The translations under genes and the position numbers were made by a program. A stretch of DNA of 64,000 nucleotides from a virus. Below, piece by piece: positions 1 through 64,000 of the stretch; the stretch's first letter is position 1, and each line of letters begins with the position of its first letter. The notes beneath the pieces are model-generated. The model ran no database searches and was not told the DNA's origin. It was given only the letters and a program-made list of their open reading frames with translations. The DNA is taken from positions 1 to 64,000 of IMG/VR virus record IMGVR_UViG_3300036770_006954; one strand, written 5' to 3'.

Positions 1-450
1 TGGTACCCGATGAACCACTTGAACCTGATGTTCCGCTCGTTCCTGAACTTCCTGATGAACCACTTTCTCCCGAAGTTCCCGATGAACCTGAAGTTCCCGA
101 AGTTCCATCTTGTCCTGAAGTTCCCGAAGTACCATCTTGACCTGATGTTCCTGATGAACCTGAAGTTCCGCTCTCACCAGAAGTTCCGCTTGTTCCTGAT
201 GAACCCGAACTACCCGATGAACCACTTGAACCTGAAGTTCCATCCGTACCATCAACACCACTTAATCCTGAAGTTCCTGAAGTACCAGAAGAACCACTTT
301 GTCCTGAGGTTCCTGAAGTACCTGAACTTCCCGAAGTTCCTGATGAACCACTGGTTCCACTTTCTCCTGAAGTTCCTGAGGTACCCGATGAACCACTTGA
401 ACCTGATGTTCCGCTAGTTCCTGATGAACCACTTGTTCCAGAGGTACCAC
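1..450 (-). repeat. 9-nt-period coding repeat encoding (G-[TSEQ]-S)n
   Basis: Recurrent cctgaagtt/cctgatgaa units; a 36-bp exact copy at 2-37 and 380-415. Confidence 0.9.
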
Positions 451-1300
451 CCGTTATTGTAATTGTTATTGCCCCATTTCCATCGTCAGTTACTTGAGCA
501 CCACTAAACGTTATACCTGAAACCGAACTTACAGTTGTTATTCCGTCACCAACTGTTAACGGATTACTACTAGTAAAACCTGTTACTTGAAAACTTTCAC
601 CAAGAGAATTTGTAAGAGTTAAAGTTTCCGTACCGTTCTCGAAAGTTCCTCCAGTTATTGGAGCAGTAAAACCTGTTATTGTGATTGTTCCGCCAGTACT
701 ATTAAATAATTCTAATTCACTGGTCCCCGAAAAATATGTTCCACCTGTAATTTGAATGTCTGTTCCCCAAAAAATTCTCCACCGTGCATTTTCTCTTGTA
801 ACGCCACTTTGTCCCTCGATTGTTGAGCCAGTCCACGCAGTAATAAAAGCTAATCCAGCATCAGAACGGTTGTTTACTGTGGTTGAATATTCCGATTGTG
901 TGATTGCAGAATTTCCTGTTAATCCCGTGAGTGCCGCCCAAAGATTATCATAATCAGGTATATGATATTGATAAACGGTATCTGTTTCATGAACATAAAC
1001 CTGCATTCCCAATCTTCTTCTTCCAGAAGATATGTTGTCGGAATTTAGCGATAACGTGTCTCTAGAAAAAGCGTTATTTAAACCTTTGGAAAATTCAATT
1101 GGTATTGTGTTTGCGGATAATTGTACCGCCCCTTGGGTAACATTACCAAAGGACCAAATTAAATCTTGAAGGTAGTAAACCTCCATATAACCTCCCGTTT
1201 GTAATACCGAAAAATTGGTACCGAAGGTGGAATTTCTTGAAACAGATTCAGCACCACTGATTTGTGACGCTGTTATGGGGTTTTTGTAGGGAAAAGACAT
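1..1300 (-). CDS. Collagen-like (Gly-Thr-Ser/Gly-Ser-Ser) repeat fibre/virion protein, partial (runs off window start); absent from the ORF track
   Basis: Hand translation from ATG at 1300 gives MSFPYKNPITASQISG...RRLGMQVYVHETDTVYQY...ITGGT, then continuous G-X-Y triplets (GTS GSS GTS GES GQS) with no stop to position 1. TATTTATA lies 13 nt upstream. Confidence 0.85.
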   Translation of the reverse strand, partial: MSFPYKNPITASQISGAESVSRNSTFGTNFSVLQTGGYMEVYYLQDLIWSFGNVTQGAVQLSANTIPIEFSKGLNNAFSRDTLSLNSDNISSGRRRLGMQVYVHETDTVYQYHIPDYDNLWAALTGLTGNSAITQSEYSTTVNNRSDAGLAFITAWTGSTIEGQSGVTRENARWRIFWGTDIQITGGTYFSGTSELELFNSTGGTITITGFTAPITGGTFENGTETLTLTNSLGESFQVTGFTSSNPLTVGDGITTVSSVSGITFSGAQVTDDGNGAITITITGGTSGTSGSSGTSGTSGSSGSSGTSGTSGESGTSGSSGTSGSSGTSGTSGQSGSSGTSGTSGLSGVDGTDGTSGSSGSSGSSGSSGTSGTSGESGTSGSSGTSGQDGTSGTSGQDGTSGTSGSSGTSGESGSSGSSGTSGTSGSSGSSGT

Positions 1301-1313
1301 TTTTTGTTTTTTT

Positions 1314-1321
1314 TATAAATA
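1314..1321 (-). promoter_or_regulatory. TATTTAT[ACT] upstream motif, putative late promoter (representative copy)
   Basis: Same motif on the coding strand before many genes on both strands; see findings. Confidence 0.65.
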
Positions 1322-1353
1322 CCGCAGATTAAATGGTTTATTTAAATTTTATG

Positions 1354-62057: not shown

Positions 62058-62102
62058 GAGTGACACATTATCTTCCACAACTAAGTGGAGTTTGTCTTAC
62101 TC
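62058..62102 (-). promoter_or_regulatory. Stem-loop in the DNA polymerase 5' leader
   Basis: GAGU-AA-GACA..UCCAC-UUAGUU-GUGGA..UGUC-ACUC, 16 nt upstream of the ATG and downstream of TATTTATC at 62110-62117. Confidence 0.45.
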
Positions 62103-62143
62103 ATTCATTGATAAATATAAAAGACCCGAAGTGGGTTGTCAAA

Positions 62144-62542
62144 CTAGCAACACGCTTGTTCAGAAATAAAACTATCTTCAATATTGATATAGAGCTCCTC
62201 ACGGATAGGGACAATCAAACTTCCTTGTTGTGTGCCAAGTAGTCCACTGTTCTTAATCAAAAATTGTCCTTGATATCTTCCAGGAGTATCAGTTTGTCTT
62301 GAGGTGAATTGATAATAGATATAATACTCGGTAGGCGCTCCTGGTTCACTTGGTATTAAACTCACAATAGAACATGGGGCACCCACAATTTTTGGAATTC
62401 CTGTTTTTACATCGACCATTGAAAAGAATATGGTGGCGAGTTCTAATAACTCCATTGTATCACCATAAGTGCTTCTACCATCTTGAACAACCTGCATCTT
62501 AAGTACAGGAAGAGTTGCGTTTTTCCTAATAAAGAATTCCAT
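62144..62542 (-). CDS. Hypothetical Ig-like protein (BppU N-terminal-like)
   Basis: FFIRKNATLP.L...YQF....TDTPGRYQGQF pattern; TATTTATC upstream. Confidence 0.5.
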   Translation of the reverse strand: MEFFIRKNATLPVLKMQVVQDGRSTYGDTMELLELATIFFSMVDVKTGIPKIVGAPCSIVSLIPSEPGAPTEYYIYYQFTSRQTDTPGRYQGQFLIKNSGLLGTQQGSLIVPIREELYINIEDSFISEQACC

Positions 62543-62560
62543 ACAAAGATAAATACTTTG

Positions 62561-64000
62561 TTAGGACTCTTTTCTTAACTTCCCATCGTAGAATTCAAAT
62601 CTGTCGTGTTCAGTAGGTGTTGCAAACAACAATGCGGGTTTGATGTTTCCCTTTTTCGTTTCTTGATAGATGTGACTCATCCAAGTTTGTTCGAAAGGTC
62701 TATCCCACTTTGTGGTTAGGAACATTTTTTCATTACCATACTTCGTCACCACTTGTGGCCAGTTACAATAATACACCTCACCAATACCATACGCCAATTT
62801 TTTATATGAACGAACTTCGTTGAATTTGGTTCTTGGGGCGTTAGGGTCCAATCCTTGAACGGGTAAAGTTGGTTTTTCGGGCCAGTACTCTTCTCGGATA
62901 TGTTGAGGAACATTATACCAAGACCATTGTGTCCCATTATCACCATAAAACTCAGTAAAATTAAGTTTCAAGAAGTCCAAAGAATCTTTCTTTGCAATTT
63001 GAATAGATTTGTTGTATAGGTCAGGAATTTTTCTTATAAAACCATTTTTACAAGTTTCGTCTGCACCACCGTAAAAGAACATATCATCTTCAAAAAACCA
63101 ATAAAAGTCAAATTTGTTTTCTTGGGAATGTTCTGCAATCCATTGTCTTCCACCACAAATTCCTAAGTTGTCTTTTTTAATATGTTCGAATCCAAATTCA
63201 TCACACAACTCTCTATATCTTTCAGTTGTAGTTAAATCTGATGAATTATCTAACAAAAACTTTTTTGGTTTATCCAAAAAGTTTCTATCATACATTTCCA
63301 TTGATTTGATGAGGGTCTCAAACTGATTGGGGCTATTGAATGTGATTACATATAGTGCAGAGTTATCAATATTCAAATCAGAATAAACAATTTTACCCTG
63401 TGTATTTTTAACTTTATGTGTGTCGTTTTTGACATCTTCGCAAAATTTACCAATAAGACCATTGGACTCAATTTCATAGTAATCGAAAATATCGGGGTGA
63501 CGGTAAAGAAGAATACTAAATAAAGATTCTTCAGTACCCATCAGACCATCTGATAAAGTTTGATTCATTAGGTTGTAATAAAGTCCATTAACATCAGAAA
63601 TGGTGTCTTTACTACCACCGAAGATTCCACCACGACAAACCAATTTCACATGATTTCCCGCGTAATTGTTAATTTTAGGGTAAGTAAAACCATGAATTTC
63701 TCTTTCAGCGGCGTAAGGAAATGCAATGAAACCGAACTTAGAAAAAAGGTTATGAAACTTGTGGTGAATTTTATCGTGAGTAAAATAACCAGGATGAACC
63801 GTATTGGTTATGCCAGCATCAATCCAAAACATATGTGTCGATTCAAAAGAGTCAAAAATTCTCGCATCGTTAAGTAAAAACATTTTGGACATAACCAAAG
63901 GGTTATACATCTCCAAACGAGCCTGAGTTGATTCAGGTAACCAACCCGATTGATTAAACCATTCAGGATTTGTTCTAATTTTTTGAATCTTGTCGTGAAA
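62561..64000 (-). CDS. Two-domain glycosyltransferase (HtrL/WlaTC-like + GT-A/GT2-like), partial at its 5' end
   Basis: KMFLLNDA...FWIDAG; YVITFN...LDNSS...NLGICGGRQ...FFEDD; the frame stays open from 63916 to 64000. Confidence 0.75.
   Translation of the reverse strand, partial: FHDKIQKIRTNPEWFNQSGWLPESTQARLEMYNPLVMSKMFLLNDARIFDSFESTHMFWIDAGITNTVHPGYFTHDKIHHKFHNLFSKFGFIAFPYAAEREIHGFTYPKINNYAGNHVKLVCRGGIFGGSKDTISDVNGLYYNLMNQTLSDGLMGTEESLFSILLYRHPDIFDYYEIESNGLIGKFCEDVKNDTHKVKNTQGKIVYSDLNIDNSALYVITFNSPNQFETLIKSMEMYDRNFLDKPKKFLLDNSSDLTTTERYRELCDEFGFEHIKKDNLGICGGRQWIAEHSQENKFDFYWFFEDDMFFYGGADETCKNGFIRKIPDLYNKSIQIAKKDSLDFLKLNFTEFYGDNGTQWSWYNVPQHIREEYWPEKPTLPVQGLDPNAPRTKFNEVRSYKKLAYGIGEVYYCNWPQVVTKYGNEKMFLTTKWDRPFEQTWMSHIYQETKKGNIKPALLFATPTEHDRFEFYDGKLRKES

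Follow-up and report, generated by a model that had tools for sequence, protein, structure and literature searches.

The structural proteins encoded on the viral contig IMGVR_UViG_3300036770_006954 contain a recurrent tetrapeptide, [ST]-G-x-[ST], and the question raised by this locus is whether the tetrapeptide marks sites at which the phage modifies its own particle. The window analyzed was a 64-kb stretch (positions 1 to 64,000), the first part of a single 171,629-bp contig from an uncultured T4-like jumbo phage. A first-pass annotation of the window had read the tetrapeptide as the recognition sequence (sequon) of a phage glycosyltransferase that builds a glycan coat, possibly sulfated, on tail and baseplate. 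We found that [ST]-[G>A]-x-T, usually with hydrophobic flanks, is a signature of outer virion proteins that is specific to the lineage. The phage is likely to glycosylate virion proteins, most defensibly Thr-Pro tracts via a gene cassette that contains a GT60-family glycosyltransferase. That the motif is itself a modification tag is possible, although somewhat short of probable.

Motif counts were compared with the counts expected from composition-preserving shuffles. In eleven enriched proteins pooled, 101 [ST]G.[ST] sites were observed against 33.6 expected (z 12.6), so the recurrence in structural proteins claimed by the annotation is a real excess. Local richness in Ser, Thr and Gly was ruled out as the cause, since six rearrangements of the same residues reached only 0.65-1.24x; [ST]G.[ST] in the remaining proteome stood at 0.81x. 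In an unbiased scan of about 48,000 gapped tripeptide patterns over the whole proteome, S-G-x-T took rank 1 (60 versus 17.5, z 10.2) and T-G-x-T rank 10. The same kind of scan gave no excess of [ST]G.S (1.0-1.1x), and the motif as first written therefore holds for Thr at position 4 but not for Ser. Position 1 favored Ser (4.6x) and Thr (3.2x) over Asn (0.8x). Position 2 favored Gly (3.9x) and Ala (2.7x), with bulky and basic residues either not enriched or depleted, and position 4 favored Thr (3.9x) over Val (1.4x) and Ser (1.2x). At position x most residues were tolerated, and Lys, Pro, His and Trp were never found. The true motif is [ST]-[G>A]-x-T, in which position 4 is Thr-specific and Ala is a partial substitute for Gly. 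In the flanks, residue -1 was hydrophobic in 65% of the sites and Ile was threefold enriched at +4.

The codons at the motif sites were diverse and near background usage; the signal is therefore at the protein level, and a DNA-level word is ruled out. Internal repeats or paralogy are likewise ruled out as the sole cause, since among 100 sites only about six fall in SprB repeats and few form paralogous pairs. Established glycosylation sequences gave no comparable signal: the proteoglycan sequence S-G-x-G was found 9 times against 10.2 expected (0.88x), which removes the analogy to proteoglycan Ser-Gly attachment, and neither the Bacteroidota O-glycosylation motif D-[ST]-[AILVMT] (0.79x) nor the N-glycosylation sequon N-x-[ST] (0.95x) was in excess in virion proteins. 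The motif was largely confined to its candidate targets, with 2.74x in the structural blocks and 0.56x in the remaining proteome.

Motif enrichment was observed in an SprB-repeat protein, several baseplate-module proteins, the tail sheath and fiber proteins at 68-78 kb; the capsid, the tube, gp25 and the gp6-like protein showed none. The motif-bearing genes between positions 2 and 14719 and the sheath gene lie on the minus strand. The baseplate-module protein of 356 amino acids (aa) encoded at 11130-12200 contains 9 sites versus 1.6 expected, and, as had been counted from the sequence, 9 of its 11 [ST]G dipeptides are followed by x[ST] (binomial P 4e-5 at 21.9% Ser plus Thr). The protein has 446 relatives in IMG/VR, and 54 distinct homologues contained a mean of 4.4 sites against 1.1 expected. 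Two of the sites were conserved in more than 95% of these homologues and the other 7 were limited to the subclade of the query; distant homologues read SAMT, SSGP, TNLS, TPNS, KQYT or NNYV there, and the direction of change at the seven sites is only inferred because there is no outgroup. The structural model of the protein was of low quality (predicted local distance difference test (pLDDT) 36), with residues 110-160 alone usable, and the two motif sites in this reliable part are modeled at loop/strand junctions. The SprB-repeat (Ig-like) fiber or baseplate protein (4156-7179; PF13573, 2.4e-16) contains 17 sites versus 6.4, of which about six lie inside the repeat consensus v-[ST]-G-G-T-x-P-Y. 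Smaller counts against shuffles were obtained for a 1006-aa virion-module protein without Pfam or PHROG match (7172-10192; mild excess, 4 versus 1.4), a 279-aa virion-module protein (12193-13032; 3 versus 0.46) and a 564-aa virion-module protein (13025-14719; 3 versus 0.71). The near-absence of the motif from PolB was confirmed, with KLTGNS as the single site.

The highest count belongs to a fiber-like protein cut by the contig start (open reading frame (ORF) 2-1300; 53 [ST]G.[ST] versus 11.7 expected), which matched the collagen family PF01391 (1e-21, 76.9 bits versus a cut-off of 27.2). The protein is collagen-like, (G-[ST]-S)n, and nearly proline-free, with Gly-X-Y visible from residue 285 on. 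Its SGTSGSSG tail, described earlier as a tandem polymer of the motif, is present, but the count follows from the three-residue Gly-X-Y period and was set aside. In its N-terminal part the sequence ITGGTF..G..L.L.NS.G...VTGFT recurs in units of about 26 aa.

The tail sheath (48294-51500, minus strand; PF04984/PF17482) is a 1068-aa protein with large inserted outer domains and 9 sites versus 2.8 expected. Its model was of good quality (pLDDT 89, predicted template modeling score 0.85), with T4 gp18 as the best structural match. Eight of the nine sites mapped to the inserted domains (residues 143-663), whereas the core (residues 700-1056) had none; minimal sheaths align only to about 290 core residues. 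From established knowledge of sheath structures, the inserted domains presumably face outward. The contexts of the sites in the model were mixed: two sites lay at helix starts, one in mid-strand and one in a hairpin turn, the others at strand ends or in loops. Across 150 representatives of sheath clusters, the ratio was 2.4-3.8x. An alignment of 88 sheath homologues contained 342 sites in 158 columns, nearly all in the inserted domains, with no column common to 30% of the sequences; the column count is inflated because the alignment is loose in these domains. Site counts tracked the phylogeny of the sheath, in which the long sheaths of one clade had about the number expected by chance. Motif sites are mostly not conserved in position.

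Cultured phages were compared by the [ST]G.T ratio in long Ser/Thr-rich proteins, with nine controls. The ratio was 3.99x in this phage, 1.90x in the pelagiphage HTVC008M, 1.85x and 1.71x in the cyanophages S-SM1 and Syn9, 1.59x in XacN1, 1.19x in P-SSM2, 1.18x in T4, 1.02x in KVP40, 1.01x in PTm1 and 0.79x in Mel-JY01. The value for this phage was twice that of the highest control, the controls spanning 0.8-1.9x, and the excess is not a general property of phage structural proteins; some aquatic T4-like phages have a baseline up to about 1.9x. Among uncultured huge phages, S-G-x-T reached 3.5x genome-wide (rank 6) in G015, which is 96% complete, and 3.0x (rank 1) in the complete G016, compared with only 1.7x in G017. 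The same division was seen in 21 structural ortholog groups, with 2.6-2.8x in this phage, G015 and G016 and 1.4x in G017.

The contig encodes at least 13 predicted soluble glycosyltransferases (GT60, GT25, two HtrL-type, four GT2, three GT4/GT1, GT10 and GT11). No membrane-like segment was found in any glycosyltransferase or sugar-island protein, and no Wzx/Wzy-like protein was found on the contig. The two-domain glycosyltransferase named by the annotation is present as an HtrL/YibB-type enzyme (62561-64252, minus strand, the window holding the part to 64000; PF09612, 4.6e-15), with 41% identity over 556 aa to XacN1 ORF330. It is the last gene of a cassette in the order GT60, GT25, HtrL-like, two-domain HtrL-type enzyme (62561-67077), in which the GT60 protein matched PF11397 with 230.8 bits against a gathering cut-off of 21 (4e-68). 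The cassette lies directly downstream of, and on the same strand as, Thr-Pro-rich fiber genes (67168-78026). A second sugar island at 80.6-98.8 kb encodes GT4, four GT2, GT10 and GT11 enzymes, a GDP-mannose dehydratase (GMD), an epimerase, two DegT aminotransferases, an acetyltransferase, a methyltransferase and a nucleotidyltransferase. The transferase GT4a lies at 80686-81900 and a GT1b/GT2c pair at 96965-98829. GT60 was found in all five long close relatives. A more distant group of huge phages also has the sheath, but 16 long contigs from it, of which nine are 96-100% complete, all lacked GT60 and HtrL.

Protist GT60 enzymes put GlcNAc on Thr of mucin-like repeats. A mucin-like protein with the Pro/Thr stalk noted before is encoded at 1354-3726 (minus strand; 29% Thr, 16% Pro); its Thr-Pro tracts (residues 66-115 and 197-593) are flanked by globular domains, and it shows no motif excess (6 versus 6.5). 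Three cassette proteins have counterparts in the cultured phage XacN1: GT60 at 48% identity, the HtrL/two-domain enzyme at 41% and a 293-aa protein at 28%. XacN1 virions gave at least two periodic acid-Schiff-positive bands, for which the authors proposed the phage transferases as makers (Yoshikawa et al. 2018, PMC5852040). Long Thr-Pro tracts occurred in 7 proteins of this phage and 13 of XacN1, and in none of T4 or Mel-JY01; in the eight GT60-negative cultured phages the only case was one tract protein in S-SM1, and at the ±10-kb sheath loci of GT60-negative huge phages none was found in 994 ORFs. The tracts go with the GT60 cassette and not with the motif, whereas the annotation had placed tracts and motif in one system. 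We infer that the cassette serves the Thr-Pro tracts because XacN1 shares both cassette and tracts, because its virions stain and because of the chemistry of protist GT60. A literature search on GT60 in phages found no paper, the phage family members being annotated only generically, and sequence searches of solved structures returned nothing for the GT60, HtrL and PF13712 enzymes or the sulfotransferase.

The sulfotransferase proposed to modify the glycan is a small Sulfotransfer_2 enzyme (25558-26178, minus strand; PF03567, 36.8 bits versus a cut-off of 22) encoded between ribonucleotide reductase and a DnaB-like helicase. The gene looks intact, with visible PKNAST and RNPYDRFYS motifs, which we take to be the 5'-phosphosulfate-binding and 3'-phosphate-binding loops for 3'-phosphoadenosine 5'-phosphosulfate, and it is conserved at 58-89% in relatives. 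No homologue was found in G015, G016 or G017. A link of the enzyme to virion proteins or to the motif is not supported; it sits among replication genes, and nothing ties it to the sulfated virion coat that had been suggested. G015 and G016 also contained no GT60 or HtrL-type gene despite the same motif excess. In P-SSM2 the GMD, epimerase, GT11, GT25 and GT2 genes all have homologues, yet the motif is not in excess, and XacN1, with the HtrL/GT60 cassette, reached only 1.3-1.6x. The excess without the cassette in G015 and G016 and the sugar-island genes without excess in P-SSM2 indicate that the enzymes named by the annotation do not explain the motif. Of the proposed virion glycosylation system there remain a real excess, largely on outer virion proteins, and the large transferase set; the named enzymes are decoupled from the motif.

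Of the 173 proteins, phyletic profiling picked out only 4 that occur in both G015 and G016 but in neither G017 nor any of six low-motif cultured phages. Among these four is a fusion of PF13712 (Glyco_tranf_2_5) and GT4 (genome positions 83235-84869, L002:3235-4869). PF13712 was present in close relatives and absent from the nine cultured controls, and its distribution fitted 3 of 3 high-motif and 10 of 10 low-motif genomes. This glycosyltransferase partly tracks the motif and is the sole candidate reader that the phyletic profiling suggested; a literature search on PF13712 found nothing relevant. The motif was also under-represented in conserved enzymes. Conserved non-structural proteins with orthologues in cultured phages contained no site against 3.1 expected in this phage, compared with 18 against 10.4 in the cultured-phage orthologues, and pooling this phage with G015 and G016 gave 11/20.6 versus 23/12.5 in the other genomes (conditional binomial P 4e-4). 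Several Walker A loops of this phage have the sequence G-V-G-K-T or G-T-G-K-S. Those in PhoH (genome positions 95383-96108) and in the protein encoded at 123614-125638 read G-V-G-K-[ST] here, G-V-G-K-T or G-T-G-K-S in G015 and G016, and mostly G-[ST]-G-K-T in G017 and the outgroups; the variants of the high-motif phages take the motif out of the loop. Enzyme avoidance and profiling fit a tag read by something in the infected cell.

The reading we tentatively prefer, at slightly less than even chances and with every chemical step inferred, has two parts. The soluble cassette of GT60, GT25, HtrL-like and two-domain HtrL-type enzymes would act in the cytoplasm, starting and extending mucin-type O-glycans on the Thr-Pro tracts of outer virion proteins (ORF 1354-3726 and the genes at 67168-78026). 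The motif would be a surface tag read neither by this cassette nor by the sulfotransferase but by some other factor of the phage, for which a soluble glycosyltransferase outside the cassette is the most plausible choice, with the PF13712-GT4 fusion at 83235-84869 as the candidate. A more specific version appears doubtful: sequon-directed cytoplasmic O-glycosylation in a large uncultured group of jumbo T4-like phages, in which the PF13712 enzyme would read [ST]-[GA]-x-T on folded outer domains of sheath, baseplate and fibers, the phages' own enzymes would have evolved so as to lack the tag and the separate GT60 cassette would build mucin-type glycans on the Thr-Pro tracts. Several points weigh against a modification tag. 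We know of no transferase that reads S-G-x-T. The complete, PF13712-negative genomes G014 and G008 still encode motif-rich sheaths (6 versus 0.7 and 4 versus 1.0), the major capsid protein contains one motif site only, and the avoidance and profiling results come from small counts, related genomes and tests chosen after seeing the data. The contig is estimated by CheckV at about 57% of the genome. The phage is uncultured, and the sole glycan chemistry is the stain of XacN1, a phage without clear motif excess.

The hydrophobic flanks at -1 and +4, which fit an ordinary loop-to-strand junction, also count against a tag and lend weight to a purely structural motif with nothing attached to it, a loop end and strand start in beta-sandwich and Ig-like outer modules that was spread by domain duplication and lineage habit. 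We consider this quite possible, if on balance improbable. Both usable sites in the 356-aa model and several in the sheath lie at loop/strand junctions, the SprB repeat consensus itself holds [ST]-G-G-T, a collagen-like repeat yields the motif automatically, and no transferase cleanly tracks it. S-SM1, Syn9 and HTVC008M, without BLAST homologues of the transferases of this phage, reach 1.7-1.9x with the same residues preferred, a further point against the tag, and no GT2, GT1, GT25 or GT60 Pfam match was found in S-SM1. However, the structural proteins of T4, KVP40, PTm1, P-SSM2 and Mel-JY01 stay at 0.8-1.2x, and between lineages the ratios of orthologous structural proteins differ by a factor of two. 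Thr is not replaced by Val, Ile or Ser, nor Ser/Thr by Asn or Asp, the site contexts in the sheath model are mixed, and under-representation in enzymes would not be expected from a habit of folding.

It is unlikely that the transferases and sugar-nucleotide genes remodel a host surface polysaccharide or modify phage DNA rather than virion proteins. Sugar islands of cyanophages are usually read as host-surface modifiers, and P-SSM2 holds homologues of five of the gene types found here; the cassette neighbors PolB in this phage, and its XacN1 counterpart neighbors DNA polymerase and RNase H; the two-domain enzyme has a weak TAGT-like match (0.0098, below cut-off). Against this, the transferases are all predicted to be soluble with no flippase- or polymerase-type membrane protein on the contig, the cassette abuts the Thr-Pro-rich fiber genes on the same strand, and XacN1 virions stain as glycoproteins. 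DNA hypermodification received no support on a contig of this completeness: the sole gene of the thymidylate synthase family resembles ordinary ThyA, closest to T4 td, and no TET/JBP match was found. The exact model of the annotation, with [ST]-G-x-[ST] as the sequon of the two-domain HtrL-type enzyme and a glycan sulfated by Sulfotransfer_2 as in proteoglycans, is highly improbable. Both genes are present and apparently intact and the motif excess is real, but the model is largely refuted by the phyletic mismatch, with 3.0-3.5x in G015 and G016 in spite of the missing genes and a low ratio in XacN1 in spite of the cassette, by the lack of S-G-x-G excess and by the position of the sulfotransferase among replication genes.

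The remaining gene content is that of a T4-like phage. Pfam searches identified virion genes (T4-type baseplate gp25, gp6-like and gp53-like proteins, tube, sheath, gp23 capsid, portal and terminase) and replication genes (PolB, gp32, DnaB-like helicase and ribonucleotide reductase). Only nine proteins matched T4 by BLAST, at 20-37% identity, and megablast against a phage collection returned no cultured phage as a near relative. PHROGs gave no match for nine virion-module proteins, an NCBIfam search added nothing useful, and no relative of P0052 was found in IMG/VR. The full genome of the clade is probably near 300 kb, because a relative with a GT60 83% identical (L234, IMGVR_UViG_3300027621_000003) reaches 294,914 bp on its contig. 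The probable host is a member of the Bacteroidota, which fits the SprB repeats, a G+C content of about 37% and a small ribonucleotide reductase subunit with an N-terminal ATP-cone (24160-25437; PF03477 + PF00268), a fusion known from NrdB of Flavobacteriia and a hint of such a host. Other genes of the window encode a 131-aa SET-domain protein (53414-53809; PF00856, 1.5e-14), a candidate lysine methyltransferase, with an SNF2-type helicase directly downstream (53809-55563), and a 508-aa protein (55604-57130) in which residues 36-225 form a complete Fe/Mn superoxide dismutase and some 280 others have no assigned function. In Mel-JY01 (PP395634.1, 635-9986), the gene for a 1234-aa GT1-domain protein is flanked on one side by an 805-aa collagen-like gene (635-3052) and on the other by a 180-aa motif-rich gene (9444-9986), and this locus could be a separate case of collagen-like fiber glycosylation.

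If the tag reading is true, abundant lake phages would mask or tune their particles in a new way, through an evolvable attachment tag dispersed over the outer surface, and the sequon and its transferase would be a new bacterial-virus pair for glyco-engineering. Even without attachment, the most over-represented short motif of the proteome, lineage-specific and avoided by enzymes, needs explaining. The link between GT60 and Thr-Pro tracts provides a testable function for a transferase family not described in phages, with XacN1 as a cultured model.

To our knowledge, phage virion glycosylation is established only for a few mycobacteriophages, in which it alters antibody recognition. There, one or two transferases reportedly attach O-glycans to the Ser/Thr-rich C termini of capsid and tail-tube subunits (Freeman et al. 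2023, Cell Host Microbe, cited in PMC11256854). The likeness lies in phage-encoded soluble glycosyltransferases for virion proteins in the cytoplasm, which are predicted from genes here; in this phage, however, capsid and tube are not motif-enriched, and a much larger enzyme set would act on candidate acceptors of two kinds, Thr-Pro tracts and a dispersed tetrapeptide. XacN1 resembles this phage in the clustering of GT60, the HtrL/two-domain enzyme and the 293-aa protein and in its many Thr-Pro-tract proteins, but it infects another host phylum, has an otherwise unrelated genome with a carbamoyltransferase in place of GT25, shows no clear [ST]-G-x-T excess, and its glycoproteins are known as stained bands only. 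Protist GT60 enzymes, which act on Trypanosoma cruzi mucins and in Dictyostelium, are polypeptide alpha-GlcNAc transferases. They belong to the same Pfam family, PF11397, and Thr-rich mucin-like acceptors are encoded next door here, although in a bacterial virus and with an activity predicted from sequence only. Chloroviruses and mimivirus glycosylate their virions with virus-encoded enzymes (cited in PMC5852040), PBCV-1 at atypical N-linked sites. They share with this phage a large transferase set and sugar-nucleotide pathways (here GMD, aminotransferases, methyltransferase and fucosyltransferase-like genes), but they are eukaryotic viruses, and N-x-[ST] is not enriched here. For a tag that sits in a structural context, the best mechanistic parallel is offered by Aah/TibC acting on AIDA-I/TibA, cytoplasmic heptosyltransferases that read a short strand-loop-strand element at many sites of beta-rich surface proteins; these enzymes differ in being of the GT9-type family, none of which was found here, and in transferring another sugar.

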